From UHGV virus genome UHGV-1550212: 64,000 bases of DNA; one strand, given 5' to 3'. Under the pieces are notes generated by a model. The model was not told the origin of the DNA. It saw only the letters and a list, made by a program, of their open reading frames with translations, and did no database searches. The translations under genes and the position numbers were made by a program. Shown one piece after another: positions 1,102 to 57,719 of the stretch; the first letter of the stretch is position 1; the number at the start of each line of letters is the position of its first letter. Source of the DNA: a virus.

Positions 1102-1153
1102 GGTAGATGTGGTTTATGCTTATGAGATTGAGACATGAAATTGAACATCAATG

Positions 1154-1777
1154 TTATGCATTGGCAATTTCAGATGGCATTCTGAACTTGATGTCATTAT
1201 ACACAAATGTCAATGTGAATGTCATCACGTTCTGGTCTACACGAGTTTTGTCATATGTGAGTTCTGAAATTGCAGAAAACACGACATCAATGAAGTCGAT
1301 GCCAAACAATGGTTTCTTTGCACCGCCATATGTCGCTACAAATCTGCAGGGCTGAAAGTAGATAGTTTCGCGTTTATCGTTAGCGTATCTGAACAAACTC
1401 TCTAAGCAACAAAAATAGCTTAAACCACCATTCGTCAATCTGCATGTCACCTGGATTCGCTTATCAAGTGCTTGATGAATTGTCTTGCTGCCCTTATGAA
1501 ACTGTGTAATTGACTTCTTCATGCCACTGTCATCAAGAACTTTATTGACATTCTGAGTAACAATTGGCATCGATATGCCCATCAATGACACAGACTGAAT
1601 TGAATCATGCAACAAGTCATTGATGTCATAAATGATTTGTGTTGGTTGTTGCACAAACACTTTATTGTAAGTATCAGCAATATCTTGCGGAATCAAATCA
1701 ATTGGCAAGTCAAAGCGAAACTGGTCTGACCGTGTATCGAGAATGAGCATATTTTTGATAATTTGTTTATGTACCAT
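1154..1777 (-). CDS. hypothetical protein
   Basis: 207-aa ORF; stop abuts the start of the upstream gene; no motif recognised. Confidence 0.5.
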   Translation of the reverse strand: MVHKQIIKNMLILDTRSDQFRFDLPIDLIPQDIADTYNKVFVQQPTQIIYDINDLLHDSIQSVSLMGISMPIVTQNVNKVLDDSGMKKSITQFHKGSKTIHQALDKRIQVTCRLTNGGLSYFCCLESLFRYANDKRETIYFQPCRFVATYGGAKKPLFGIDFIDVVFSAISELTYDKTRVDQNVMTFTLTFVYNDIKFRMPSEIANA

Positions 1778-2976
1778 TAACTGTCATACGACCAGTGACC
1801 ACAGTCATACACTGGCACAAATCCAGTGTCAAGCATTTCTTGCTCAATAAAGCCATCATCAAGCAAATGTTCACCTGACTTCGTATTGACCCAATGCTTC
1901 TTAATTGTGCATTCATCAACCACAAAGGGATTAAGTGCATTGTCAGTGCAATCAATGAACACATTATTCAAATGCGCGTCAATGACATGCAGCACAATTT
2001 CTGGGTTGTGCCAATCAAATATCATAAGTGGCGTGTAGCCACATACAATTGCAAGTTGTTGCTTCCACCAATGATAGTTTGGCTGTTTTGCTTCTGCGGC
2101 ATTTCGTTTAAAGCCATACACGCTATTATGAGTATGCGTCGGGTTAACGTCAATTAGCAGATTGCCATAATACAGGTCATATGATGTTATGCCAACATCA
2201 TGTTCAAACTCAAAATGCACACCAAGATGTTCTTCAATGTATGATTGCCACCATCTGTTTGGCGCAGATATGATTTGCCCATTTGCTTGCATACATTTAT
2301 TTGTCATGCAAAACCATGGCACACCGTAACGTTCCATACAGGTTTTTGAAATTGCAGCAAGCCATTCATCTTTGTCTCTATGCGGCCATGCATAACCATA
2401 ACGCAGACGACATGTTTGTTGAGCTTTAGCAACGATTGGCGCTAAACGTTCACCGTATATTTCACGTTTAGTTGCGATGGCTTTGCGTGGATTAGTCCAT
2501 CCAGCATCACCCCATCGCTCAAGCTTCGTTTGCTGAGATTTTTCAACAATCAGTTCAAGATTCTCACCATATTTTTGACGACGAGTTTGCATTGCTGCAA
2601 CATAATCTGTAATGCATCTATGGCCATACAAACGTTCTTTTGTCGCACTATGTGCTTTATCGCCATATGAACTGCCGTAGCGTGCAACTTTAGTGGCAAT
2701 TGTTTGCTTGATGTTGCCTGCTTTAGAACCATAACGAGCTTCTTTAGTTGCTACGCATTTTTGTTTGACTTCTGCTCTGTTCCAATTATGCTCAACGCCA
2801 TGTTTACGAAGATGGCCAATTTTCATGTTGTACACGTTTTTGATATGACCATGAGATGTCTTACGTGGTGCATATCGTACAAATGGTGTTTCTGCAAGCA
2901 ACTTATCTCGTTCAGCTTCAAGCTCTTTAATTCGAGCTTCAAGAGCTTCACCAGTCAAATGCTCTACATGTTTCAT
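1777..2976 (-). CDS. tandem-repeat protein (about 8 x TK..RYG-type units) with C-terminal nuclease-like domain; possible homing-endonuclease-like gene
   Basis: N-terminal coiled-coil LTGEALEARIKELEAERDKLL, then ~17-20 aa repeats (ATKEARYGSKAG, ATKVARYGSSYG, KYGENLE, RYGYAWP, ERYGVPWF), C-terminal LLIDVNP...H block. Paralog of 55801..56967 with identical 5' nucleotide stretch. Confidence 0.55.
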   Translation of the reverse strand: MKHVEHLTGEALEARIKELEAERDKLLAETPFVRYAPRKTSHGHIKNVYNMKIGHLRKHGVEHNWNRAEVKQKCVATKEARYGSKAGNIKQTIATKVARYGSSYGDKAHSATKERLYGHRCITDYVAAMQTRRQKYGENLELIVEKSQQTKLERWGDAGWTNPRKAIATKREIYGERLAPIVAKAQQTCRLRYGYAWPHRDKDEWLAAISKTCMERYGVPWFCMTNKCMQANGQIISAPNRWWQSYIEEHLGVHFEFEHDVGITSYDLYYGNLLIDVNPTHTHNSVYGFKRNAAEAKQPNYHWWKQQLAIVCGYTPLMIFDWHNPEIVLHVIDAHLNNVFIDCTDNALNPFVVDECTIKKHWVNTKSGEHLLDDGFIEQEMLDTGFVPVYDCGHWSYDS

Positions 2977-3473
2977 TCGTGTTTGCCAGTTTGAAATAAC
3001 GAATCAATTGGGATGTGAATACCAGGTTTGGATTGAATGTTCCATCCGCGCGCCAAACCATTAAGTACGCAGCTCGTAAGGTAAGAAAACGCGTTTTGAG
3101 TTACTGTTGGGTCAAACATTTGCCACTTTGACGCCAAAATTAACATGGCTTCTGCTGCGACATCTGCTTGTAAGTCTTTGTCCCTGTAGTATAAACGTCT
3201 CTGCACATGTTTGATAAGCAACTCAAACATGTGTATAAGTTTATTTGACAGCTGTCCAGATACTTTGCATGCGCATATTTCTGCACAAAGTTCTTTGCTG
3301 TTGATGTAATAGTTTGATGGCTGACCTCGCTTCTTTGTGTTTGCAGCTTCTTCACGAAGTTGGTCTTCAAGTTGTGTCAACATGTCATCATCTGACACGT
3401 ATTGAATATGCTTGTCTTCTGGTAGTTTAGATTCTATTGGTTGTAAGTTTTGCAGTGGCATAGCAGTGAGCAT
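2973..3473 (-). CDS. hypothetical protein (start trimmed)
   Basis: Track ORF begins at 3518 but would span the promoter at 3490-3518 and approach the terminator at 3523-3550; first ATG downstream of the -10 box is 3473. ATGA overlap with the downstream gene at 2973-2976. Confidence 0.45.
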   Translation of the reverse strand: MLTAMPLQNLQPIESKLPEDKHIQYVSDDDMLTQLEDQLREEAANTKKRGQPSNYYINSKELCAEICACKVSGQLSNKLIHMFELLIKHVQRRLYYRDKDLQADVAAEAMLILASKWQMFDPTVTQNAFSYLTSCVLNGLARGWNIQSKPGIHIPIDSLFQTGKHE

Positions 3474-3522: not shown

Positions 3523-3550
3523 AAAAAAGCTCAGCCAATTACGGCTGAGC
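3523..3550 (-). terminator. intrinsic terminator
   Basis: Perfect 8-bp stem GCTCAGCC/GGCTGAGC with 6-nt loop, followed on the minus strand by UUUUUU; downstream of 3578..4867. Confidence 0.6.
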
Positions 3551-3577
3551 TTTCATTGAGATGCGTCTTGTCTGCCA

Positions 3578-4874: not shown

Positions 4875-6365
4875 TTATGCCTTTTTAGATTTGCGCTTTG
4901 CGGCAACTACGACTTCTGCTACGATAGCTTCTACAGTAGCTTCAGTTACAACAGACTTGTCTGCAACTTTTACAAGAGCTGCATGCAACTTGTAGTTGCC
5001 GACTTTGCTGAAAGTGCACTTGAATTCTGTTGTTGCGTTGTATTCTGCAGGTACTGCAAAACCACTGTCAGGACCCCATACACCAGTGTCTTCAAATGTC
5101 CAAGACTGTCCTTGTGAATCTGTTGCAGCGAATGTCACATGACCATCTTCAGGTGCTTCTACAATTTCATATTGCAGCTGAACGCCATCAACACCTGCTT
5201 TACCAACGACTTCAGTTGCAAGTGTTGCATTGATTGCAACTTCTGTTGTAGGCTGAATACTTGCAGGGACATCTACAGAAATCTTGTATTCTGACACTTC
5301 AGGCTGAACTGGCTCAGCAACAACTACTGTAGACTCTGCTTCAACAACTACACTGTCATCAGCAACCTTGGCAAGAACTGCATGCAACTTGTATGCGCCT
5401 GCCTTGCTAAAGATTACAGTGAACTTTGTAGTTGCATTGTATTCTGCTGGAATGTCAAAGCCTACTGCAGGACCCCAAGTTCCATTATCGACGAATGTGT
5501 ATTCATTGCCAGTTGTGTCAGTAGCCTTGAATGTCACATGACCATCTTCAGGTGCTACGTCCACGCCATAACGGAACTGAACTTTGTCAACGCCGACGTC
5601 GCCAACAGTCTTCGTTTTGAATGTTGCATCAAGCTCAACTTCAGTGTTTTCGATTATTGTTTCAGGTGCAGACATTTCGAACTCGTACTCAGACACTGTT
5701 TGTGCAGCTTGTTCAAGTTTGATGTTCTTTGTCTTGTTTGAACTCATAGTCTCACGACCAGCATGGCTAATGTAGCCCTCTTTAGACACTTCCCATACAA
5801 TTTCTTCGCCTGACAAAACAGTCAACGAATTGCGAACTTCGCCATTCATCTTGATAACTGCATCTGCAGGTTCTACATTAATTGTCAGTGTAGCTTTGCT
5901 AAGCTTAACAAGCTCCACTACTTGAATGACATCATGATTTGTGAGCGTGATTGTGCCCTCCTGAGATTCATAGCCCTCTTTCGACACTTCCCACTTAATT
6001 GGAATGCCTGCGGGCACATTCTCAAGCATCTTTGTAGCCTCACCATTGATTTCTACATGAGCATCTTCAGGCACTGGCTGAATTGTGATGCTGAACTTGT
6101 CTTTACCAGGTTCAGGGTCTGGTCCGGGTCCTGGGTCATCACCAGTAATTGCAGGGATGATAGTGTTTTCGATGACTTTCTGAGCTTCTGCAGTTGTGCC
6201 ATAGAATTTGAGAGTTTTCTTGGCTTCTTCTACAGACATCTTCTCAAGATTATCTGCAAGATATGTCAGACCAGTGACTGCAGCAATTTTCTGCCGCATT
6301 TCTGGGCTAATGACTACACCAGTAGATTTGACTACTGGAGCAGCTTGTTTTTGTTTCTTTGCCAT
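4875..6365 (-). CDS. protein with tandem internal beta-sandwich-like (Ig-like?) repeats
   Basis: Two ~125-aa near-duplicate blocks (VAPEDGHVTFKATD...PAEYNATTKF / VEAPEDGHVTFAATD...PAEYNATTEF) plus shorter WEVSKEGY repeats; start moved to in-frame ATG (MAKKQKQ) at 6365. Confidence 0.55.
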   Translation of the reverse strand: MAKKQKQAAPVVKSTGVVISPEMRQKIAAVTGLTYLADNLEKMSVEEAKKTLKFYGTTAEAQKVIENTIIPAITGDDPGPGPDPEPGKDKFSITIQPVPEDAHVEINGEATKMLENVPAGIPIKWEVSKEGYESQEGTITLTNHDVIQVVELVKLSKATLTINVEPADAVIKMNGEVRNSLTVLSGEEIVWEVSKEGYISHAGRETMSSNKTKNIKLEQAAQTVSEYEFEMSAPETIIENTEVELDATFKTKTVGDVGVDKVQFRYGVDVAPEDGHVTFKATDTTGNEYTFVDNGTWGPAVGFDIPAEYNATTKFTVIFSKAGAYKLHAVLAKVADDSVVVEAESTVVVAEPVQPEVSEYKISVDVPASIQPTTEVAINATLATEVVGKAGVDGVQLQYEIVEAPEDGHVTFAATDSQGQSWTFEDTGVWGPDSGFAVPAEYNATTEFKCTFSKVGNYKLHAALVKVADKSVVTEATVEAIVAEVVVAAKRKSKKA

Positions 6366-6452
6366 AAGATATTGTGAATTTGGTTGTTTATTCTTAACAA
6401 AATATGTACATACAGATGCAACAGATGATATGTCAGATACACAAAGCTGCAT

Positions 6453-6494
6453 AAAATGACCAGACTTGCAAATAAATTTAAGCAAGTCTGGTCA
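6453..6494 (-). terminator. intrinsic terminator
   Basis: 13-bp stem TGACCAGACTTGC/GCAAGTCTGGTCA, 12-nt loop, U-tract on minus strand; just downstream of the polymerase C-terminal ORF. Confidence 0.6.
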
Positions 6495-6509: not shown

Positions 6510-7802
6510 CTACAACAATGACGGCACTCGTTGAGTTTCAAGTGGGTCGCTGACATTGATGCCTGTGTATGCAACAAGTCGTTGTATTGGGCCAAGTACG
6601 AGTTTTTCGAACATGAGTCGTTTGTTCATTGGCGGCACATCTGGCATATACTTCGGTGTCGGCATTTCGCCTGGTGCAAAGCCAAATGCATCGCAATATT
6701 GACGAGAGCCAATTGGTATATTTGACAAATCTGACTTTGCTCTGTCAACAAAGTAGTAGAACACTCGACCGCCTTCAATCAATGGGTATCGTGTTTCCAA
6801 TCCATGTGCTTTGACAAGACAGTTATGCCAACAACATGCTCTATATTGAGGCAGTACACCTTTTGCTAACTGCCATTCACCATCATAGCTTAGCACATAG
6901 TCATGATACTTGTTTGCATTGACATATGCACAAAGTTTCTCCAAGTCTTGCTCGGCTTCAAAGCGTTTCCATAATTTCTGTATGAGCTTTGGATATGTCG
7001 CAGAAGTTAATTCGCCTCTGAACATTTTCTTGAATGCATAATCAAGCATTTGTCTAACAAGCATTGACGAGCCTGTTTGAATAAGTTCGATGCCTTTGCC
7101 TTGAATGTGCTCAGTAGGGTCTTCGAATACTCGACCATCTACATATATTTGAGCCTTTAAGTACTTTTTCTTTTGGGCAAATAATGCAGTGTCAGAAATC
7201 GTTTCGAGGTCAAATAGCAAAATTGAATTGCCGTGGCGTTTTGCGAGGTCTGCTGCATATGCACCATTGAATAACTCTTCCATACGATATTTGAATATCG
7301 CAAGAATCAAGTCATACCAATTTTTGCCTATGTAGCCAATTGATTTGACAGTTGGCTCAAAGTGAATGTACAAAGAGTCTGTATCAATGTACAACACTTT
7401 GTCTTCATAAGGCTCTTGCTTTGGCGACACAGACAAATCAAAATTGCCCTTCAATTGTGGGTCATTACGCAGCTTTTCATGCAATTCATAATCACACCAC
7501 CACTTATTGTTGAGATAGTCATTTGCTACTCGTTCACCAAAGTGAATGAAGTTGCGGCCTTCAGCAGTAATTGATTCTGCAACTGCCATATTAAAGAAGT
7601 GATAGAAACGATTGCTTGTAGCGCCATATATTGAGTTTCGACAACATTTTGCTGAGACTTGCAGTCCTGCATGCTTTAGTGATTCTTGCATTGCAAAATC
7701 TCTCAATTCAAATAGACGTTCAGTAGACAACTGGCTTAAATCACCAGTCAAATCTACTCCATCTATTTCAATTTTTGACATATCTATCTGAGCTTCTGCC
7801 AT
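6510..7802 (-). CDS. family B DNA polymerase, C-terminal part (motifs B and C)
   Basis: Contains K-x3-NSxYG (KCCRNSIYGATSN), YIDTDS and KKKY motifs; has its own promoter (7824-7853) and terminator (6453-6494). Confidence 0.85.
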   Translation of the reverse strand: MAEAQIDMSKIEIDGVDLTGDLSQLSTERLFELRDFAMQESLKHAGLQVSAKCCRNSIYGATSNRFYHFFNMAVAESITAEGRNFIHFGERVANDYLNNKWWCDYELHEKLRNDPQLKGNFDLSVSPKQEPYEDKVLYIDTDSLYIHFEPTVKSIGYIGKNWYDLILAIFKYRMEELFNGAYAADLAKRHGNSILLFDLETISDTALFAQKKKYLKAQIYVDGRVFEDPTEHIQGKGIELIQTGSSMLVRQMLDYAFKKMFRGELTSATYPKLIQKLWKRFEAEQDLEKLCAYVNANKYHDYVLSYDGEWQLAKGVLPQYRACCWHNCLVKAHGLETRYPLIEGGRVFYYFVDRAKSDLSNIPIGSRQYCDAFGFAPGEMPTPKYMPDVPPMNKRLMFEKLVLGPIQRLVAYTGINVSDPLETQRVPSLL

Positions 7803-7823
7803 AAGTTGTTTATTTTTGATTAA

Positions 7824-7853
7824 ATTGTACTACACATGTTGCAATTTTTGCAA
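7824..7853 (-). promoter_or_regulatory. sigma70-like promoter (TTGCAA-N18-TACAAT)
   Basis: 22 nt upstream of the polymerase C-part ATG (7802). Confidence 0.5.
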
Positions 7854-7866
7854 TACACATGTTAAA

Positions 7867-7899
7867 CCAAAATGCAGCAGCAGATGTTCTGCTGCTGCA
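7867..7899 (-). terminator. intrinsic terminator
   Basis: 11-bp stem TGCAGCAGCAG/CTGCTGCTGCA with 5-nt loop, U-rich tail on minus strand; downstream of 7944..8771 and upstream of the polymerase C-part promoter. Confidence 0.6.
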
Positions 7900-7943
7900 T
7901 CGGCAGGTATCTTCACAATTGTTTGAGTTGATTGCAATGCGAT

Positions 7944-8771
7944 TTAGAATGGCAGGTCGCCATCATCACCTACAGCATCAAAATCAGCAGCAATGTCATA
8001 TACCAACGTCATTGCGATTCGCAAATCACGTTTCTTAGATTTCAGACGCATGATGTCATGACCTGAATTGTTTGTGATGACTGAGCATTCAAACTCTTCA
8101 TTGCCGTCGATGAATGACAGCATTGATTTGTGAATTGTGATTGGCGACAAATCTGACGGATATGACGAATCAATCACATATTCAAAGTTGTTGTTCTTGG
8201 CAATTAGGCCTCGTTCAGTTGTGCGAATCTCAATGCCGGGCAGTTCCTTGTCACCTGTATTCAATGAGCCATACGATGACATGATGCCAAAGTGATTTGA
8301 CGTCAAATCGAGCTTTCTCAGATTTGTTGTGCTATCAAACAGCATTGACATATCATTGTCAGACAGCTCAAAGTAGCCAAGTGATGGCATTGAACAAACC
8401 TGATTGATTTTGAGCTGATTGTTTGAGATTACAATGAGCTCTGCAATTGTATCTGTACCAATTTGTTTGACATAGATTTCAATCATTGCATATGAGCCAA
8501 ATGCAGCAAGTACTCGATTGTTGAATTGCGTGCCATTGTAAATAAGCGCCTTGACTGTGACATCTTTGAGTGTAGACTCATAATGTTCGCAAATGTCAAG
8601 CACATTAAGTGTCTGCGACTTTACAAAGCTACTATTGCCAGCATCAGTTCTGATTCGCTGGTCATTGAGTGAAAAGCTAAGCTTGCCATCGCATTTTAAT
8701 GATGATGCAAACAATGCTCGCAGCATATCAATGTTTGCATTGCGTAACGTAATTTTGTTCAGATTTTCCAT
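7944..8771 (-). CDS. putative replisome/ssDNA-binding protein with SSB-like acidic C-terminal tail
   Basis: Ends ...DFDAVGDDGDLPF, resembling the polymerase-interacting acidic tip of SSBs (DDDIPF). No OB-fold evidence seen by eye, so function is tentative. Confidence 0.4.
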   Translation of the reverse strand: MENLNKITLRNANIDMLRALFASSLKCDGKLSFSLNDQRIRTDAGNSSFVKSQTLNVLDICEHYESTLKDVTVKALIYNGTQFNNRVLAAFGSYAMIEIYVKQIGTDTIAELIVISNNQLKINQVCSMPSLGYFELSDNDMSMLFDSTTNLRKLDLTSNHFGIMSSYGSLNTGDKELPGIEIRTTERGLIAKNNNFEYVIDSSYPSDLSPITIHKSMLSFIDGNEEFECSVITNNSGHDIMRLKSKKRDLRIAMTLVYDIAADFDAVGDDGDLPF

Positions 8772-8805
8772 CTTGTATCTATGTTGTTGATTTTCAATTT
8801 AATAT

Positions 8806-8834
8806 ATTGAACAACATTTGTTGACATTTTGCAA
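8806..8834 (-). promoter_or_regulatory. sigma70-like promoter (TTGCAA-N17-TTCAAT)
   Basis: Upstream of 7944..8771. Confidence 0.45.
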
Positions 8835-8839
8835 CATTG

Positions 8840-9214
8840 TCATCGATTGTCGCCTGACCCATGCAATACACCTCGCAATTTTCGAGACTGCAGTTTCTGA
8901 ATGTTAAGCTGACAAATGTCAGTTAAGCTGTAGCCCAAATCATGTGCAAGAGTTGCAGCATACCACATGACATCGCTGAGCTCTTTTGCGATTTCCTTGC
9001 GAATGTCTTCATTATCAAAATCACCATTCTTGTCTCGAATGACTTTTTTGACTTTGTCTGCAACTTCGCCTGCTTCACCCGTTAAGCCAAGTGTTGGATA
9101 GATAATTGCAGCTGATTTAGGATATACTGCGCTATCAAGCGCAGCAGTCTGATATTCATCAATAGTTGAAATCCAAGTGTGGTCGATTACGCCGTGTTCA
9201 TCTCGTTTAAGCAT
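8840..9214 (-). CDS. mazG: MazG-like nucleoside triphosphate pyrophosphohydrolase
   Basis: LGLTGEAGEVADKVKK ... EIAKELSDVMWYAATLAHDLGYSLTD is the typical all-alpha NTP-PPase pattern. Confidence 0.75.
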   Translation of the reverse strand: MLKRDEHGVIDHTWISTIDEYQTAALDSAVYPKSAAIIYPTLGLTGEAGEVADKVKKVIRDKNGDFDNEDIRKEIAKELSDVMWYAATLAHDLGYSLTDICQLNIQKLQSRKLRGVLHGSGDNR

Positions 9215-9215
9215 A

Positions 9216-9707
9216 TCATTTACGTTTTTGTTTGACTCTTAATCGTTTTTGCATAAATGCTCTTGTAGCTTCACCAAAAGCCATCTCGTCTCGTTCGCCA
9301 CCACAAAGCTTTGCAAGCTTATTGAATGTGTCTTGGTCAATCATTGTGTACGTTGAGTTGTTGACCACATGCAATGCAAACTGAATCAGCGGTGCGCCTG
9401 GCTGCAAGCAGAATGGCTCTTTACCTGCATTGTACACTGCAAGATGAATCTCGCCATGATAGTCTGAATCTACAAACTCACTTGTTTTGATGATAAGATG
9501 ATTTCGTGAAATGCCCGACTTATTGTAGGCAATCAATGCATGACCGGCAGGCACAAGTGCTTTGATGCCAGATGGAATTGCAATGCCCTCACCAGGTTGC
9601 AGCATTGTTTGCACAAAATCATTGGGTATGCAAAAGTCCCATGCGCCAGATTCTGCTGTTGACTTAAAAGGACTTTCTACATTTCTGCATTTTGCAAAGA
9701 ATAACAT
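9216..9707 (-). CDS. dut: dUTP diphosphatase (dUTPase)
   Basis: dUTPase-like motifs SGAWDF, VDSDYHGEI, LIQFAL and C-terminal GGERDEMAFGEATRAF. Confidence 0.7.
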   Translation of the reverse strand: MLFFAKCRNVESPFKSTAESGAWDFCIPNDFVQTMLQPGEGIAIPSGIKALVPAGHALIAYNKSGISRNHLIIKTSEFVDSDYHGEIHLAVYNAGKEPFCLQPGAPLIQFALHVVNNSTYTMIDQDTFNKLAKLCGGERDEMAFGEATRAFMQKRLRVKQKRK

Positions 9708-9730
9708 ATTAAGTATGTGTTTGTATGTTG

Positions 9731-10081
9731 TTAGTACATTTCTCGTTTAACAAGAGCTTTGCGTTTTGAGCGTAGCCCTGCCCTATTACGTAATTCTACT
9801 GACCAATCACGAATCATTTGCCATGCAATCCCACCACGTTGAATACCACCGTGCTTGAACATTTCATTGCAAATACCTTGAATAAACACCGCATCAGACT
9901 TTGTCAATGCGTCAACAATTTGACCATGGTTGTCTTCTGTCTTGACATCATTGCAAAGCTTAAGCTCATCTACTGAAAGTTCGCCAAGCAGCTCATAGTA
10001 GTATATGAGAGCTTTGCGTGCGGCAATTGCTTTTCTTGAATTGCCAGAATAAGACAAAGTCACATGTTTGCTCATATTCAA
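9731..10081 (-). CDS. hypothetical protein
   Basis: 116-aa ORF lying inside the insert that splits the polymerase; no motif recognised. Confidence 0.45.
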   Translation of the reverse strand: MNMSKHVTLSYSGNSRKAIAARKALIYYYELLGELSVDELKLCNDVKTEDNHGQIVDALTKSDAVFIQGICNEMFKHGGIQRGGIAWQMIRDWSVELRNRAGLRSKRKALVKREMY

Positions 10082-10095
10082 TTATTGTTATGGTG

Positions 10096-11601
10096 TTACA
10101 ATTTGATTGCGCCTCTACGAGCAAGCTCTTCTTCAATCAATCGAACATGATTGTTAGCATACCAAAATTGCAATTTTTTGTGATAATTGCGAACGTTGCC
10201 AAGCTGTTCTTGAGTTTCTTTATACATTGAAGGCTCTCTGTTGTCATACAGACAATTGTTGACTGACACAAAGTAATTTGGGTCTGCTTTGTAATGCTCA
10301 ATTTCATCAGGATTTGTTAAACGTCTAATAAAGTTGTCTGGTGAAATATTCGCCGAGCGCATACTTGACGGATACAATGAGTTTGCGTCAACACAGACAA
10401 CCATACGAGCCCAATGGTTAAATGGTTGCTTAACAAAGCCGCCCTCAAATGAATGTACTACATTCTCTGGGCCACCTTGAGCACATACAACTTTGCCGCC
10501 ATATTTGTTGTATAAGTATGTCATCATGACGCCCTCAGATTGCTTAACTGGTCCTTGGCAGTGATTCATGTCAATATTTGTCATATTTGACAATGACATC
10601 ACATTTGATATCAAGTCAGTTTTTGCAGCAATCATTGCATTGACCATAGTATCGACAGCATTGTATGCAATGAATGTGCATGGATGATACAAATACAGCT
10701 CTTTAAGTGTGCAATCATAGGGCAACTTACCTACGCCGAACATACGATGTGCAATGTAGTCAAGTCGCAATGATTCCTTTTGCCACACTGAATAGTCGTA
10801 TGTGTCCATGAGCTGCATGTAGTCATCAATGTACTTGTGATATGGCATACCATTGCCCCAGACAGTTCTGCCAACTGGAGATGCCAATGCTAAATCAATA
10901 TTGTGCATTGCGCATCGATTTTTGACATAGATGTTATCGAAGTCATTGATGTTCCAGCCTGTCAATGCAGGAATGTTTTTGAAGAGCTTAGTCACCCAAA
11001 AATGCAACAATTCATGCTCATTTGCATGTTGAAAAATTTTGACAGTTGGATGTTCTTTCAAATACGCAGCAAAGCAATGTTGACCCATATACTCTTGAAT
11101 GATGCCATTGACAAACTCAAATGCATCATCCAATGTTGGGTTTTGTTTGCCGCAGCTTTTGCGCAAATCATCATCATTCAACAAGTCAACAGTAGTCTGA
11201 ATGACACAATTGCATTGTTCATCGCATGTACTTATTGCATTAATGGGCATTTCAGCTTTGTCAGGCTTTGGAAAGCCATTGCCAATTTCAGTCTCAATAT
11301 CGTAAAAGTACAACTTTGGTCTACGATAAGCAAACAATTCAGCTTTGTCAGCTTCAGGCAATTCAAATAAGAATTGCAGCAAGTCAAATTGATTGAATCG
11401 TTTTGCTGTGACTCGAGTCACTGGCAATTTACGCCAATCTTGAATATCTGCATATTGAGGCTCTACGTGGTCTGATATTTGCCACACTGGAAATTGATAT
11501 GGCTGTTCACAGACTGGGTATGTTTTGATGTCAATGCCACCTTGCTCATTAACATATGAGACTTCAATGCCATGTGACAAATATGCTACGTCAACAATCA
11601 T
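10096..11601 (-). CDS. family B DNA polymerase, N-terminal part (3'-5' exonuclease domain and motif A)
   Basis: Exo I FYDIETE, Exo II NINDFD, Exo III YNAVDT, polymerase motif A DANSLYPS; stops ~100 aa after motif A; own promoter at 11630-11658. Confidence 0.85.
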   Translation of the reverse strand: MIVDVAYLSHGIEVSYVNEQGGIDIKTYPVCEQPYQFPVWQISDHVEPQYADIQDWRKLPVTRVTAKRFNQFDLLQFLFELPEADKAELFAYRRPKLYFYDIETEIGNGFPKPDKAEMPINAISTCDEQCNCVIQTTVDLLNDDDLRKSCGKQNPTLDDAFEFVNGIIQEYMGQHCFAAYLKEHPTVKIFQHANEHELLHFWVTKLFKNIPALTGWNINDFDNIYVKNRCAMHNIDLALASPVGRTVWGNGMPYHKYIDDYMQLMDTYDYSVWQKESLRLDYIAHRMFGVGKLPYDCTLKELYLYHPCTFIAYNAVDTMVNAMIAAKTDLISNVMSLSNMTNIDMNHCQGPVKQSEGVMMTYLYNKYGGKVVCAQGGPENVVHSFEGGFVKQPFNHWARMVVCVDANSLYPSSMRSANISPDNFIRRLTNPDEIEHYKADPNYFVSVNNCLYDNREPSMYKETQEQLGNVRNYHKKLQFWYANNHVRLIEEELARRGAIKL

Positions 11602-43530: not shown

Positions 43531-43536
43531 GTTGAT

Positions 43537-43565
43537 ATTGTACAACATGCAAAATGCATTTGCAT
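43537..43565 (-). promoter_or_regulatory. sigma70-like promoter (ATGCAA-N17-TACAAT) with adjacent 17-bp tandem repeats
   Basis: Followed ~55 nt downstream by the terminator-like hairpin 43438-43481. Confidence 0.4.
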
Positions 43566-43594
43566 TTTGATACAACATGCATTTTGATACAACA
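43561..43594. repeat. perfect 17-bp tandem direct repeat x2 (TGCATTTTGATACAACA)
   Basis: Read directly; overlaps the -35 region of promoter 43537-43565, next to an AAAATGCA-TT-TGCATTTT palindrome. Confidence 0.7.
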
Positions 43595-44440: not shown

Positions 44441-45988
44441 TTCTACGAATGGCTCTTTCAACACAAAGCTGTCACCATTGCAACATGCGGCTGAGCCATC
44501 GTCTGCATCAAGTGCACATGACATATCAGACTTGCAGAACTTGCAATATAAACATGACCATGCATGACTCATGAAGTTGTTTGCTTCACAAATTGCGCAA
44601 CGCTCATGCATAAGTGCATTGTCGCAATTATCACAAGACTTCTTGATTGGCACAGTTTTGTTGATGTATGCAAGATGCAATGCAATATCATACACAAAGT
44701 CACCCGTATATTGCTGAATGAAATCAGTATGCCACAACTCTTTTAACAATTGTGCATGTCTATATGGCTGAACAATGTCTTCAAGATGCTGCAAGTCATC
44801 ATCGCTAACCATGAGCTTCTTAATGACAAATTGTTTGAACTGTGGCCATCTGTCAAACATATAGAGTTTGCATGAGTTGTGCACAAGTGGAACACAGCCA
44901 AGCACAATGCTTTCACAGAATCTACGCAAACTAAAACAGTTTGCATCATATGACGGCACAATCAATGTGAATCTGCTATGCTTGATGAGTTCAAGGTATG
45001 TGTCATATGGCAGTAGCTTATCTGACAATTGCTGTTGTTGTTTGTCTCTGCTGAAAAATCTGAACACAATACCCTTGTCAATTGCATCTTGATTGTGCAG
45101 ATGCATGAGTTTGTTGATGAGTTCTGTGCGTTCAGTTTTGTCTCGCCAAGTATTCGTCAATGCAAATGCAAAATTCAGTCGCTTGTCATCAAACGTCGCT
45201 TCAATATCATTCCAAGTTTTGTCATGCAAATACCAGTATTGCTGTGATGGGCACCATCCATAATATGCAATAGCATCTTGTTCTGCTGTAACGTCATACA
45301 CATATGCAGAATTGTATTCAAGGCCAAGCCTTTTGACGTTGTTGCAGTCATGAAAGTACCAATGCTGCACTTTGAATATCTTTGATGCACTGAATGCGCT
45401 TTCATATGGCCCTGAATAGCGATAGTCAATGTAATTGAGCTTGTGCTGCAATGGGTCTTCGACAAAGTTGTTTATGACTGTGCCTTGTTGTTTGCCCTTA
45501 GTCTTGCGAGCATTCAATGCAACATTGTATTGCATGATGACTGACAGCATCTCATACACTACATACATGAGTGCTTTGTAGACTGAGCCTGCTGCGTCAA
45601 TTAGTGGCAAATCACGTTTGACTGATGTAGCGCCAAATGTCTTGCAATATGCAGAAAATGTGTCAAGTTCTGCTTGCTGAAATGAATTGCATGCACCATT
45701 GAATATGTTGAATGTTGCAATGTAGCTCATATTGCAAGATGTCATTGACATATCAAGACGCTTCATAATGTCGACAATGCGACATTGAGCAAAATCTGAC
45801 ACATCAACATATTTGACATGATGGCCTGATGTAGTCAAGCCATCTGCGACATCTTTCATCTGTGGCACAAAGCCTACAACAATGAATAAGTCATCTTTGT
45901 TTGCTCGTTCAAACATTGCTGCACTTTTCCAAGTCAATGAATTGAAAAAGTCTATGTAGCCAGTTTGAGTGATTATATGCGTTCTCAT
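44432..45988 (-). CDS. putative glycosyltransferase-like protein (cassette copy A2) with Cys-rich C-terminal extension
   Basis: Paralog of 40152..41390 (EDPLQHKLNY, PSQQYWY, FTLIVPSYDANCFSLRRFCESIVLGCVPLV); extra CDNCDN...C cluster. Confidence 0.4.
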   Translation of the reverse strand: MRTHIITQTGYIDFFNSLTWKSAAMFERANKDDLFIVVGFVPQMKDVADGLTTSGHHVKYVDVSDFAQCRIVDIMKRLDMSMTSCNMSYIATFNIFNGACNSFQQAELDTFSAYCKTFGATSVKRDLPLIDAAGSVYKALMYVVYEMLSVIMQYNVALNARKTKGKQQGTVINNFVEDPLQHKLNYIDYRYSGPYESAFSASKIFKVQHWYFHDCNNVKRLGLEYNSAYVYDVTAEQDAIAYYGWCPSQQYWYLHDKTWNDIEATFDDKRLNFAFALTNTWRDKTERTELINKLMHLHNQDAIDKGIVFRFFSRDKQQQQLSDKLLPYDTYLELIKHSRFTLIVPSYDANCFSLRRFCESIVLGCVPLVHNSCKLYMFDRWPQFKQFVIKKLMVSDDDLQHLEDIVQPYRHAQLLKELWHTDFIQQYTGDFVYDIALHLAYINKTVPIKKSCDNCDNALMHERCAICEANNFMSHAWSCLYCKFCKSDMSCALDADDGSAACCNGDSFVLKEPFVEVQ

Positions 45989-47151
45989 GATTTGAATGTT
46001 TGTTCAAGAATTGTATAGCACTGTGCAATCATTGTTGCAAGAGCTTTTTGCTGAAGCTGTTTGCAATTTGAAGATATTGTGTATTGCTGACGCTCAGTTG
46101 TAGTACTGCTTAATGTCGCAAATTGCAGGTACTCATCTTCTGACATGATATCAGCAAACAATGCAGACAATTCATAATCTACAATGACATTTGAGCAGTT
46201 TGCAAGTACGCCTTCAACCCATCGATTTGGCAACAAACATGCTTGCACATACAATGAATCGCCGACTACAAGATTGCACATTGACTGCGACATTACATAC
46301 GTCATCATGTCATATGGCACTTTGTACTTAAGTGTGAAGTTTTGTGCTGCTGACTTAATTGCTTGCAGAATTGTGTCATCAAGATATGATGTTATAAGGC
46401 AAGTATTGTATGCCTGCATAATGTAACGCTCAATCACGCTTCTACGATACTCGTCAAGATATGTGAAACCTGCACAACTTGCACAACATGCATATTGCTG
46501 CTTTATGTCAGCAAAGCTACACACATGCGCTTCAATTGCATTTTGCATTGTTGCTTGTCGTTTGAGCAATCTTGGCTCTTTAATGCATTGAAGCTTCAAT
46601 GCATTGACTGCTGCAATGATTTGCAATGGCACAAACACGCATTGAGACTCATCAAGCCAAGCATACTTGAGATTTTTATGTTGACACAGATGCGTAATGT
46701 TGTCTTTTTGTGATTCTAAGTACTCTTTGTAATTATGCAATCGCTTTGTCAATGTGCACTCTTTGTCAAAATCAAATCGCAAATCAGTTGTTAGTGTAAA
46801 TTTGCGAACATTTGACAAGCACCATGCTTTGAATGCATTCCACAGAACATCTTGCTGAAATTCTGAACAATGTTCAAGAGCAGCCTTTGAGCCCTGCCAG
46901 AATATTGCGCAATCATCTGATTTTGCACACTTCAGCATATCTTGCCATGCATGTATGCTATTGATGATATGCACTTTATTATGCACAAGCTCATTAAGTG
47001 TTGCATGCTTGTTCTCAGGGTCGCCAAACACGTATACTGTATCAAACATTGTTTGAACAAACCCTGCAAATGCAATGGGTTCTGTATGTTTAAGATGCTG
47101 TATGTCTGAACGCACACATGTGTCAAATTTCAAAATGAAGAGTTTGCTCAT
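45985..47151 (-). CDS. hypothetical enzyme-like protein (cassette copy B2)
   Basis: Paralog of 41372..42547; promoter at 47181-47210. Confidence 0.45.
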   Translation of the reverse strand: MSKLFILKFDTCVRSDIQHLKHTEPIAFAGFVQTMFDTVYVFGDPENKHATLNELVHNKVHIINSIHAWQDMLKCAKSDDCAIFWQGSKAALEHCSEFQQDVLWNAFKAWCLSNVRKFTLTTDLRFDFDKECTLTKRLHNYKEYLESQKDNITHLCQHKNLKYAWLDESQCVFVPLQIIAAVNALKLQCIKEPRLLKRQATMQNAIEAHVCSFADIKQQYACCASCAGFTYLDEYRRSVIERYIMQAYNTCLITSYLDDTILQAIKSAAQNFTLKYKVPYDMMTYVMSQSMCNLVVGDSLYVQACLLPNRWVEGVLANCSNVIVDYELSALFADIMSEDEYLQFATLSSTTTERQQYTISSNCKQLQQKALATMIAQCYTILEQTFKS

Positions 47152-54553: not shown

Positions 54554-55684
54554 CTACTTGAGCCCGTTGATGAATGCTTCAGTTTCAGCATCCATCGTTG
54601 CTGCTGCAGGTGCTGCTGCCGGAGCTGCTGCAGGTGCAGGTTCTGGTGCAGGCGCTAAAGCTGCTGCAAACGGGTCAATGGCTGTCTGAGCTGCTGGTGC
54701 AGTAGCAGGCGCAGCTGCCTGAGCTGTTGCAGGTGCAGGCTGAGTAGTCTGTGCCTGCTGAGCTGCTGACGAATTGATGACAATGTCAGGCCAGATATCC
54801 GACACATCCTTGTAGTTAGCAAGGCGCATCTTAACCTGACGCTTGATGTCATCAGAAGCTTCGTGGTAGCCCCACTCCTTTTCGACATTCGGGTACTCCT
54901 TGAGCATGTCGACAATCTGCTGCATAATTTGCTGCTTGTATGCAGGGTCAGTGTCATACTTCGCCTGGTCAACAAGCGTGCCATCTGCAAGCAGCATCGA
55001 CGATACGTTGGGCGAAATCGTCGAAGTCTCGTAGTCACGCATTTCAACGCCATTGACGTCTTTCAGCGTAATCTTCAAGAGAATGTCGTGGCCCTTAACG
55101 GGATGGAACATGTCCATAGGCTGAGCACCCATCTGGATGTCTTCGTCGGTAGGCTTCATTGCAGACATGCAACGCTTGTAGATGGCTGCAGGGAGTCGAT
55201 ATGGGAGTACTTTCCCAACGTTCTCAGGGTGCACTGAATCAGCCTTGATTTGCACGAGGCAAGTGTACTGACTCTGCATGCTGAACTCTCGCTTTGCAAG
55301 CGCTTCCTGCTGAGCATCCTTGGTATTGATGAGTTCCCAGTAGAATGCCGAAATGGGACACCATCCATAGGGCTTCATCAAATTTTCAGGATTTTCAGGA
55401 TGCGGATTCGGCGAGCTCGGCGAATTGTAGCGGAAGCCCTGATTAGCGCCAGTGCCAAACCAGTAGTAACGGACGATTGAAATCGGCACCGCGGGGTCAT
55501 TCAAGTTCGGCAGAATTCGAATGACTGCTCGATAGATTCGGTCCTTACTTTCGGAAGGCTTAGGATTAAAAAACTCAGGTCCTGCAGAACGTTCCGGCTT
55601 AGCAAAGCTTGCTACATTGTCCGGCTGGACATCAAAGATTGACAGCGGCTGATTACCGGTCTGCCCATTTTCAATTTGTGACAT
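54554..55684 (-). CDS. hypothetical protein with Ala/Pro-rich low-complexity C-terminal region
   Basis: 376 aa; visibly GC-richer codon usage than neighbours; C-terminal (AP/AAP)n linker then a short conserved-looking tip; possible abundant DNA-binding protein. Confidence 0.5.
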   Translation of the reverse strand: MSQIENGQTGNQPLSIFDVQPDNVASFAKPERSAGPEFFNPKPSESKDRIYRAVIRILPNLNDPAVPISIVRYYWFGTGANQGFRYNSPSSPNPHPENPENLMKPYGWCPISAFYWELINTKDAQQEALAKREFSMQSQYTCLVQIKADSVHPENVGKVLPYRLPAAIYKRCMSAMKPTDEDIQMGAQPMDMFHPVKGHDILLKITLKDVNGVEMRDYETSTISPNVSSMLLADGTLVDQAKYDTDPAYKQQIMQQIVDMLKEYPNVEKEWGYHEASDDIKRQVKMRLANYKDVSDIWPDIVINSSAAQQAQTTQPAPATAQAAAPATAPAAQTAIDPFAAALAPAPEPAPAAAPAAAPAAATMDAETEAFINGLK

Positions 55685-55771
55685 CGCAATAAAATTTTAG
55701 AAAGTTTAACAAAAAGTTTGAAATGAACTCTTCAGAAAAGCTTCAGAAGTTTATTTGTTATTTGTATATGT

Positions 55772-55800
55772 ATTGTATAACATGCAAAGTACTTTTGCAC
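55772..55800 (-). promoter_or_regulatory. sigma70-like promoter (GTGCAA-N17-TACAAT)
   Basis: Upstream of 54554..55684 with ~87-nt leader. Confidence 0.5.
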
Positions 55801-56967
55801 TTATCTTGCATGACCACAGTCATCTGCAAGCAGTTTAGCATGACCGCAGTCATATACTGCAACATAACCGACGTCAATCATCTCTTGTTCATCTTGACCG
55901 ATATCTTCAATATGTTCTTTTGTCTTCAAATGACACCAGTGCTTATGAATGGTTGACTTGTCATCTGACAACTGCGGGTTGAGCGCGAAGTCAGCTGAGT
56001 CTACTTGTTCACCTGCAAGATGCTTTCTAATGGCGTCAATGACTTCGTTGTCATCCATCCATTCGAATATTGTAATGCAAGTGTAGCCATGCTTAAGAGC
56101 AAGTTGAGTTTTGTCGAAGTGGTAGAATTTGCCAACTGGCTTATTGTGTTTTGTGCGCCCAGTTAAATATGCAAAGCCATATGTTGCATTGTGTGACCAA
56201 AGAGGATTAACTTCAATCAAAAGTTTGCAGTATTCATTACAATAGTCAAGGTCATATGACCATCGCCCAAGATTGACATTATCAAGCCCGCAATCAATAC
56301 CAAGTTCTTGCAGCAATTTGTCGTGCCACCAATGGTTTGCTCGTGATTTTACATGACCTTGAGCATCACGGCATTTAGTAGTCATACAAAACCATGGCAC
56401 ACCATGTCGTTCCATATTGACTTCTTGAACGCGTTCAAGATTGCCGCTCTTATTGCCATAACGTTGCTGTTTTGTTTGCAATGCAGCATCAATATTGCCC
56501 CATGCATTGCCATATCGTTTTACAACAGTTTGTTTGCGTTTTTCAACATCACAGCACTTATTGCCATATTTACGCAATTTAGTGTCAAATGCTTTTTGTG
56601 TATTGCCTATGCCACGTTTGCCCCATTTGCGCTCTTTGCCTTGTTGACATCGTTCTTGGTCACCCCATGTGCTGCCATATCGTTCTAAATTTGTTTGTCT
56701 ACGTTTTTCAACATTGCCTGCTTTGCATCCATGTCGTGCTAAATTTGTTTGTTGTTGTTTAGCTACGCAATCTTTGTTACGTGCAGGAAATTCAACGCCT
56801 AATGAACGTAGACAGCCAATTCTACGATTATAATTACGTTTAATATTGCCGTGTGATGTTTTACAAGGCCCATATCTTACAAACTCAGTTGTTCTCAACA
56901 ACTCATCTCGCTCTTGCTCAAGCTCTGCAATGCGCTTCTCAAGAGCTTCACCAGTTAGTGGCGTCAT
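55801..56967 (-). CDS. tandem-repeat protein (RYG/KYG units) with C-terminal nuclease-like domain; paralog of 1777..2976
   Basis: Same architecture: LTGEALEKRIAELEQERDELL coiled coil, repeats (ARHGCKAG, ERYGSTWG, KYGNKCC, RYGNAWG, RYGNKSG), C-terminal LLIEVNP...H. Confidence 0.55.
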   Translation of the reverse strand: MTPLTGEALEKRIAELEQERDELLRTTEFVRYGPCKTSHGNIKRNYNRRIGCLRSLGVEFPARNKDCVAKQQQTNLARHGCKAGNVEKRRQTNLERYGSTWGDQERCQQGKERKWGKRGIGNTQKAFDTKLRKYGNKCCDVEKRKQTVVKRYGNAWGNIDAALQTKQQRYGNKSGNLERVQEVNMERHGVPWFCMTTKCRDAQGHVKSRANHWWHDKLLQELGIDCGLDNVNLGRWSYDLDYCNEYCKLLIEVNPLWSHNATYGFAYLTGRTKHNKPVGKFYHFDKTQLALKHGYTCITIFEWMDDNEVIDAIRKHLAGEQVDSADFALNPQLSDDKSTIHKHWCHLKTKEHIEDIGQDEQEMIDVGYVAVYDCGHAKLLADDCGHAR

Positions 56968-57719
56968 TTCACTTCAGGTTTTGCTTGCTTGGCCAACTCA
57001 GCTTCAGCATTGAACTCTTTGCCCTCAGCTTTCATTGTTTCAGCATAAGTCTTTTCATCAGTGTAACGTTCTACGCCATCACCAAGCAGTTTTGCAACTT
57101 CATCATCTGCTTCAAACAATGGCTGTGGATTGTCATCATTGTCATCTTTGAGTTGCTCAAATGTGCTGTTATGCTTTTCTGCAATTTTGATGAGGTCAAC
57201 GATTGAACGAGTTACGAGTTCACCATTGATGCCTGACTGTTGTTCAGATTGACCAGTGCCTTGTTGCAATTCTGCTTGAGTTGCTCGAACATTATTATTG
57301 AGTGATGCAAGTACATTGGGAAGAGTTCGACAATATGATATATATTGCTGAACCAACGACATTGCATCATTCTGCAGTTTGATGAGAAACGCAAACTCAC
57401 CCATGCCTCCGCCTTGTGCATCAATGCGCTCGAATACTGAATCAAGTGCATGCATTGCATAGAACACTTGTTTGCAAAGTAAATTGATGTTTGTCTTCTC
57501 CATCTCAATTGATGCATCGATAAATGGCGACTTAACATCTGCTGCTATGCACAATTTGCGAACTTCATCAACGTATTTTGAACACTTGTCAAGTGTCTTG
57601 TCAAGTTTGCTTCGGTCAAACTGCTTGTAAACTTCTAACGCATCGCTTACTTCTGCAGCATCCAATATTGCATTTGCTGCAGCCAATTCTGATTCTCTGC
57701 TCATCTCAAAATGGTCCAA
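56964..57719 (-). CDS. hypothetical acidic protein
   Basis: 251-aa ORF with ATGA overlap to the upstream gene. Confidence 0.45.
   Translation of the reverse strand: MDHFEMSRESELAAANAILDAAEVSDALEVYKQFDRSKLDKTLDKCSKYVDEVRKLCIAADVKSPFIDASIEMEKTNINLLCKQVFYAMHALDSVFERIDAQGGGMGEFAFLIKLQNDAMSLVQQYISYCRTLPNVLASLNNNVRATQAELQQGTGQSEQQSGINGELVTRSIVDLIKIAEKHNSTFEQLKDDNDDNPQPLFEADDEVAKLLGDGVERYTDEKTYAETMKAEGKEFNAEAELAKQAKPEVK

Follow-up and report, generated by a model that had tools for sequence, protein, structure and literature searches.

What are the two repeat-bearing genes that an uncultured phage carries at distant positions of its genome, and are they mobile? The DNA analysed here is a stretch of 64,000 nucleotides (nt) of the virus genome UHGV-1550212 (in the following, the window). 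The genes in question are copy A (1777..2976, minus strand, 399 amino acids (aa)) and copy B (55801..56967, minus strand, 388 aa). In both, the ATG overlaps the stop codon of the upstream reading frame as ATGA, which in copy A stands in the context GAATGA at the end of a sigma factor gene and in copy B at the end of a 251-aa open reading frame (ORF). An earlier note, made from the sequence alone, had described the pair as duplicated nuclease-like genes that stand alone, bear repeats and are typical of homing-endonuclease-type mobile genes. In this study, we found support for this description in a Vsr-like fold of the nuclease domain and in empty sites at both loci. With a probability of roughly 0.8, these are freestanding homing-endonuclease genes from the Hef-like branch of the Vsr-like ('EDxHD') nucleases, carried by a T4-like phage, and as such ordinary selfish mobile genes that belong to a known, though little-studied, family.

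The nuclease core and its relatives

Both ORFs are present on the minus strand and their products are 42% identical end to end (BLASTP over the full length, E 4e-93), in agreement with the proposal of two distant paralogs. Both proteins consist of four parts, namely a short N-terminal helix, an array of single-helix repeats, a conserved nuclease core and a small C-terminal beta module. Besides copies A and B, no further copy was found within the window by tblastn and a six-frame hidden Markov model search, and the same searches ruled out a third paralog at 45985..47151, where an ORF of also 388 aa is located. Among phages in GenBank, megablast of both loci gave no match. In tblastn searches of phages, copy A gave no match at 1e-3 and copy B weak matches only.

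The nuclease core comprises residues 205-345 of copy A (1942..2364, minus strand), with N240, D267, D276, N278, P279, H283, H302 and K305, and residues 176-335 of copy B (55963..56442, minus strand), with SYDL, LLIEVNP..SHN and YH. The conserved C-terminal block that had been pointed out before is real: YGVPWFCMT, SYDL, LLI(D/E)VNP..(T/S)HN and YH are kept across the homologs. The AF2 model of the full-length protein was of middling quality (pLDDT 65); a model of just the core (residues 205-345), built with 60 homologs, reached a pLDDT of 91.2 and has an alpha-beta-beta-beta-alpha-beta topology. In a Foldseek search of the PDB, the top match of the core model was 3R3P, the catalytic domain of I-Bth0305I (probability 1.0, TM 0.71), and the fold matches in BFVD are phage 'endonuclease-like' and 'homing endonuclease' proteins. 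Alignment to I-Bth0305I by hhalign gave E 5.8e-6. Sequence searches of the PDB with copy A and with the core profile returned nothing meaningful, and the relationship to I-Bth0305I surfaced only by fold and profile-profile comparison. The suspected nuclease-like C-terminal domain is accordingly Vsr-like, with a solved homing endonuclease as its best PDB match.

Active-site residues were mapped from the hhalign register and the published residue numbers (PMC3239194); the mapping is alignment-based and not a structural superposition, and conservation was counted over 60 family members. The Mg-binding D196 of I-Bth0305I corresponds to D267 (59/60), the extra acidic residue E206 to E/D276 (60/60), N208 to N/D278 (58/60), the general base H213 to H283 (60/60) and K225 to K/R305 (59/60). 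At the remaining two positions, E170 is replaced by N240 and D222 by H302, and because each replacement is found in 59 of the 60 proteins, the family departs from the strict EDxHD signature; its pattern is N..D..[E/D]x[N/D]P..H..H instead of E-D-x-H-D. Since N240 and H302 are themselves near-invariant, they suggest a variant active site and not a dead one. The canonical PD-(D/E)xK triad D...(D/E)-x-K was not found, as N or D and not K stands in the element [E/D]-x-[N/D]-P. The expected kinship with homing-endonuclease and PD-(D/E)xK families is therefore borne out by the Vsr-like homing-endonuclease match, with the qualification that the family is an 'EDxHD' offshoot of the PD-(D/E)xK fold and not a canonical member.

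The same residues bear on a very improbable reading, in which the genes would encode non-catalytic or RNA-directed helical-repeat proteins of the RAP/FASTK kind, with repeats that bind RNA and a Vsr-like domain that either lacks activity or serves in transcript processing near gp55 and gp32. Yet 59-60 of the 60 family members keep the Asp that binds the metal, the second acidic residue and the His that acts as general base, and the near-invariance of the substituted N240 and H302 indicates constraint and not decay. In addition, the profile similarity is to homing endonucleases and not to RAP proteins, and the genomic behaviour of the genes (see below) is that of a mobile DNA element. RAP/FASTK helical-repeat proteins are eukaryotic organellar RNA-binding proteins, and no relation to the window proteins was detected at the sequence level.

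A homing-endonuclease identity is also indicated by the wider family. The PHROGs family phrog_3339, 'homing endonuclease', matches copy B (E 2.7e-9). A profile search of 1.84 billion cluster representatives yielded 9,350 relatives with E <= 1e-3, of which 313 reach E <= 1e-30; the relatives are mostly 400-700 aa long and have the repeats, the core and a terminal hairpin in common. Alignment by hhalign to F-LimVIII of Dickeya phage LIMEstone1, which carries the Pfam domain DUF7487, gave a probability of 96.3% (E 1.9e-9). F-LimVIII was published as a 'Hef-like' freestanding homing endonuclease (PMC3296691), and phage Hef-type endonucleases are included in the Vsr-like 'EDxHD' family (Taylor et al. 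2011, PMC3239194). The link to U5 Hef rests on the published 'Hef-like' annotations and on the statement in PMC3239194. Like the window genes, the Hef and Hef-like endonucleases of T4-related phages (U5 Hef; LIMEstone1 F-LimIII/VII/VIII/X) are freestanding between conserved genes of T4-like phages. In F-LimVIII, too, a DUF7487 array precedes a Vsr-like core that has the motifs E-x-N-G..H and Y-H; the protein keeps E at the first motif position, where the window proteins have N, and Y-H at the last, as they do. Pairwise identity between the Hef-like and the window proteins is only about 25%, and the latter are shorter, have repeats of 18-19 aa instead of 23 aa and possess a clade-specific N-terminal helix. 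Three features of the Hef-like class were found, i.e., a DUF7487 array, a Vsr-like core homologous to annotated Hef-like proteins and a freestanding position with presence/absence polymorphism.

Other known systems resemble the window genes in part. I-Bth0305I, the EDxHD prototype (3R3P), shares the Vsr-like catalytic fold; however, it is encoded in a group I intron and has NUMOD/helix-turn-helix (HTH) DNA-binding modules, whereas the window genes are freestanding and carry a DUF7487 array. Neither NUMOD nor HTH modules were matched in copies A and B by Pfam at E <= 1. The window proteins differ from the Vsr mismatch endonuclease and DUF559 in their biological role; they lack a Zn site and mismatch-recognition elements and have no match to Pfam DUF559. 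The seg/mob endonucleases of T4, such as SegG beside gene 32, have the same lifestyle, being intergenic beside essential replication and late genes including gp32, with co-conversion of the flanks (PMC2988022), but their catalytic folds (GIY-YIG, HNH) are unrelated.

Occupied and empty sites

Each endonuclease gene is inserted exactly between two conserved genes, copy A between a gp55-like sigma factor gene and a gene for a 198-aa protein, and copy B between the 251-aa gene and a gp32-like gene. At locus A, ten related contigs (L014-L023), whose sigma factor is 94% identical to that of the window, carry only 50 nt between the sigma gene and the 198-aa gene. The locus is empty also in the contig L013 (sigma 71% identical), with a similar short spacer. 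At locus B, the contig L010 shows the order peptidase, orf254 (73% identical to the 251-aa gene), 163 nt, gp32 (79% identical) and helicase. The genes are thus present or absent at both loci across related phages. The earlier note had stated what would speak against its reading, namely that every relative keeps both genes at unchanged loci and that the fold is not that of a nuclease, and the data contradict both parts. The sequence ATATCAAAT is common to both empty sites, but occurs at chance frequency and was discounted.

Locus A also offers an allele replacement. The contig L007 carries there an endonuclease allele that is only 55% identical, while the flanking proteins are 95-99.5% and the flanking DNA about 96% identical, with sharp boundaries. 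Between window positions 2863 and 2114, DNA identity drops from about 96% to about 50%; at the two ends of the gene, over the first ~100 nt and the final ~290 nt, it remains at about 95%. A divergent tract covers the 3' end of the sigma gene (2976..3093, minus strand), where the window differs from the empty-site allele by 34 mismatches in 118 nt, 21 of them in a core patch at 3048..3093, compared with 11 mismatches in 327 nt upstream of 3135. At 3048..3093, L007 has kept the empty-type sequence. Judged from these alignments, the tract looks like a candidate co-conversion tract or a target-site (target-immunity) variant specific to the window allele.

Further copies of the family are located at other loci of related phages: beside the large terminase gene (L002, L009), between gp2 and portal (L007, L015, L018), before the clamp loader (L008) and directly upstream of a PolB C-terminal fragment (L014), a locus without a copy in the window. 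Over 581 nt, the copy in L002 is 88% identical to the 3' half of copy B, although the surrounding DNA is unrelated. A 175-kb relative from IMG/VR (94-95% DNA identity to the window) carries counterparts of A and B at the corresponding loci, plus at least one further copy. A scan of JGI metagenomes with gp32 found no relatives. Taken together, this pattern fits homing-endonuclease genes with present or recent activity in this phage clade. For the annotation of gut T4-like phages, it accounts for local synteny breaks beside gp55, gp32, terminase, portal, clamp loader and PolB.

Two alternatives have to be weighed against this background. First, the genes might be relics that no longer move and drift towards loss. 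In the A-type copy of the IMG/VR relative L005/L026 (IMGVR_UViG_3300045988_149023), which has one extra 19-aa repeat, codon 317 is an in-frame TAG (CAG to TAG) that represents either a pseudogene or a sequencing error; the window copy A is one repeat short of P0001/L005; and copy B ends in a 10-aa duplication. In the window, however, neither ORF is disrupted and every conserved core residue is present, and the ratio of nonsynonymous to synonymous change (pN/pS) is well below 1, so that we regard decay as highly improbable.

Second, the genes could be domesticated descendants of homing endonucleases, kept mainly to cut the genomes of co-infecting competitors (marker exclusion) or for phage DNA transactions and not for their own spread. 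Marker exclusion mediated by SegG and other freestanding endonucleases is established for T4 (PMC2988022) and provides a precedent. Small counts notwithstanding, pN/pS values of 0.28 (copy A) and 0.22 (copy B) are near that of gp32 (0.19) and indicate purifying selection, the N-terminal module is strongly conserved clade-wide, and the ATGA overlaps couple both genes tightly to essential neighbours. Selfish turnover is a better match for presence and absence among near-identical relatives, for allele replacement at one locus and for the copies at several loci, of which one is a candidate pseudogene. Synonymous divergence, again from small counts, is only 0.05 and 0.10 in the endonuclease genes compared with 0.18 in gp32, a difference that hints at a more recent shared ancestry. 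Because marker exclusion is an outcome of the same cleavage-and-repair mechanism, domestication differs from selfish homing in emphasis; as the principal role of the two genes, we consider it unlikely.

To our knowledge, only one or two members of the Hef-like/Vsr-like homing-endonuclease lineage have been studied biochemically. The selfish genes described here add a well-documented natural example, with empty sites, allele replacement, a co-conversion-like tract and a possible pseudogene.

Repeat array, N-terminal helix and a possible mechanism

The earlier count of about eight tandem RYG/KYG repeats was close: copy A has nine units and copy B eight, at a spacing of 18-24 aa. In copy A, the array spans residues 34-217 (2326..2877, minus strand; net charge about +20) and its units end at HG59, YG82, YG100, YG117, YG136, WG155, YG174, YG193 and YG217, the last repeat doubling as the first helix of the nuclease domain. 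In copy B, it spans residues 31-190 (56398..56877, minus strand; about +24). The arrays proper contribute +14 (A) and +18 (B) and the first degenerate unit another +6, whereas all other segments of the proteins are acidic. Each unit is a basic single helix with the motif K-x3-T-x3-[RK]-[YW]-G. Pfam assigns the array to DUF7487, in copy A with 39.9 bits (E 5.9e-10), above the gathering cut-off of 27, and in copy B with 21.3 bits (E 2.7e-4), below the cut-off, although the eight units are still recognisable. In a set of 1,174 repeat units drawn from the family, a period of 23 aa is the most frequent, compared with 18-19 aa in the clade of the window. Relative to the Y of the consensus (position 0), G stands at +1, R/K at -1, T at -5 and K at -9, with variable positions between the last three. 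Since K, T and R/K are spaced i, i+4 and i+8, they lie on one face of the helix. The array is probably an extended DNA-binding domain.

No mention of DUF7487 was found in a literature search. The Pfam domain of 'unknown function' is here the repeat array joined to this nuclease in thousands of phage proteins, and the link supplies concrete constructs and candidate substrates for work on DNA recognition. The N- and C-terminal modules are common to the paralogs, while their repeat arrays differ, i.e., the proteins are modular mosaics. It is tempting to speculate, although we would give this idea rather little weight, that the array is a modular DNA reader in which each helix of 18-23 aa combines a fixed K/T/[RK] stripe for backbone contacts with variable base-reading positions. 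Retargeting would then proceed by gain, loss or exchange of repeats between paralogs, with the nuclease and C-terminal modules being reused. If so, the family (~9,350 clusters at 50% identity) would represent a natural, possibly re-programmable nuclease scaffold, equipped with a dimerisation helix specific to the clade and a Vsr-type active site with N and H substitutions.

The N-terminal helix of copy A (residues 1-33; 2878..2976, minus strand; LTGEALEARIKELEAERDKLLAETP) is a putative dimerisation helix. It follows the pattern LTGEALE(A/K)RI(K/A)ELE.ERD.LL, is predicted at a pLDDT of about 94 for residues 9-29 and is nearly invariant among homologs of 35-90% overall identity. The conservation is at the protein level. 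The first ~40 nt of the two genes had been called near-identical, and one exact run of 17 nt (ACTGGTGAAGCTCTTGA) is indeed shared, but the first codons differ and the next ~80 nt are only ~70-75% identical. A nucleotide-level element, such as an RNA structure or a recombination site, was rejected, as synonymous codon identity between copies A and B is barely raised at the 5' end (0.66 versus 0.52-0.63 elsewhere); the nucleotide similarity is therefore a by-product of the conserved N-terminal peptide. In two homologs, P0010 and P0011, the whole N-terminal module (helix and first degenerate repeat) is tandemly duplicated (alignment columns 34-100).

At the other end, the small C-terminal beta module (residues 346-399 of copy A; 1780..1941, minus strand) ends in the family-wide motif VYDCGH. 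The end of copy B (55801..55833, minus strand) carries the 10-aa tandem duplication (DCGHAKLLAD-DCGHAR), which is not present in the 95%-identical IMG/VR relative L006.

Worth recording as the less ordinary points of these genes are the link between DUF7487 and a Hef-like Vsr-type nuclease, the N..D..(E/D)x(N/D)P..H..H pattern, the clade-specific N-terminal helix and the modular mosaicism.

From this anatomy and the precedents of I-Bth0305I and T4, we infer a possible mechanism. Transcriptional read-through and translational coupling would provide for the expression of each gene. The array, with its 8-9 basic repeats, would lay the protein along a long DNA target near the insertion point in the endonuclease-free allele of a co-infecting relative, and the N-terminal helix would pair two subunits. 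The Vsr-like cores might then cut both strands, with D267 and E/D276 holding the metal and H283 acting as general base. Recombinational repair from endonuclease-carrying genomes would copy the gene and some of its flank into the cut genome. Potentially, divergence and shuffling of the repeat array would retarget the enzyme to new loci.

A few points weigh against reading the genes as homing endonucleases. Of the five residues after which EDxHD is named, two differ (E170 to N240, D222 to H302), and pN/pS values of 0.2-0.3 would also suit a domesticated function. The repeats are a probable DNA-binding region and the N-terminal helix a putative dimerisation element, and the AF2 model of the repeat region has low confidence (pLDDT 45-65).

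Host phage and neighbouring features

The window is a fragment of a T4-like phage with a GC content of 40% and nearly all long ORFs on the minus strand. The source, an uncultured T4-like phage, probably has a Bacteroidota host in the gut. By PolB comparison, its nearest cultured relatives are Chryseobacterium and Tenacibaculum phages (29-36% identity), and the related contigs originate from gut metagenomes.

Directly upstream of copy A lies the gp55-like late sigma factor gene (2973..3473, minus strand; phrog_234, E 2.5e-7; homologs of 162/166 aa) and downstream the 198-aa gene of unknown function (1154..1750, minus strand), whose true start is the ATG at 1750, as in the homologs, and not at 1777. 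Copy B is preceded by the 251-aa gene of unknown function (56964..57719, minus strand) and followed by the gp32-like gene for a single-stranded DNA-binding protein (54554..55684, minus strand), beyond which a UvsW-like helicase gene is located further downstream. The leader upstream of gp32 (55685..55800) is retained and recognisably conserved in the empty-site allele. The earlier placement of one copy beside structural-looking genes holds only loosely, as the flanking genes are the sigma factor gene, gp32 and two genes of unknown function. Scans for promoters and terminators revealed no convincing dedicated signal for copy A or copy B. A strong terminator-like hairpin is located at 3525..3554, in the spacer upstream of the sigma gene.

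Between the 198-aa gene and a 154-aa gene (window 1102..1153), relatives carry extra sequence that is absent in the window (L007 3237..3485; L014). In L007 it encodes an 82-aa ORF and represents a second small presence/absence polymorphism near copy A. An intergenic sequence of ~45 nt recurs at 88-90% identity in the window (43536..43583), L005 (5959..6008) and L014 (511..553). One relative has it in front of the sigma gene and another in front of the PolB C-terminal fragment, and its position in the window is ~43.55 kb; the sequence may be a shared regulatory cassette.

The family B polymerase PolB is split over 6510..11601 (minus strand): its N-terminal part, the exonuclease, has 501 aa (10096..11601), and its C-terminal part, the polymerase, has 430 aa (6510..7802). 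The ~2.3 kb between both parts harbor a dUTPase-like gene (9216..9707), a MazG-like gene (8840..9214) and an unknown 275-aa ORF (7944..8771). Between the PolB fragment and the sigma-factor operon, a 536-aa protein (4875..6485, minus strand) combines PEGA and head-fiber dimeric domains with an internal duplication of ~130 aa. Finally, a gene with a TnsA-like N-terminal endonuclease domain (PF08722, ~148 aa) is conserved in relatives close to gp2 and portal (L007 5564..6013; L013-L020), at a place just outside the window on its left side.
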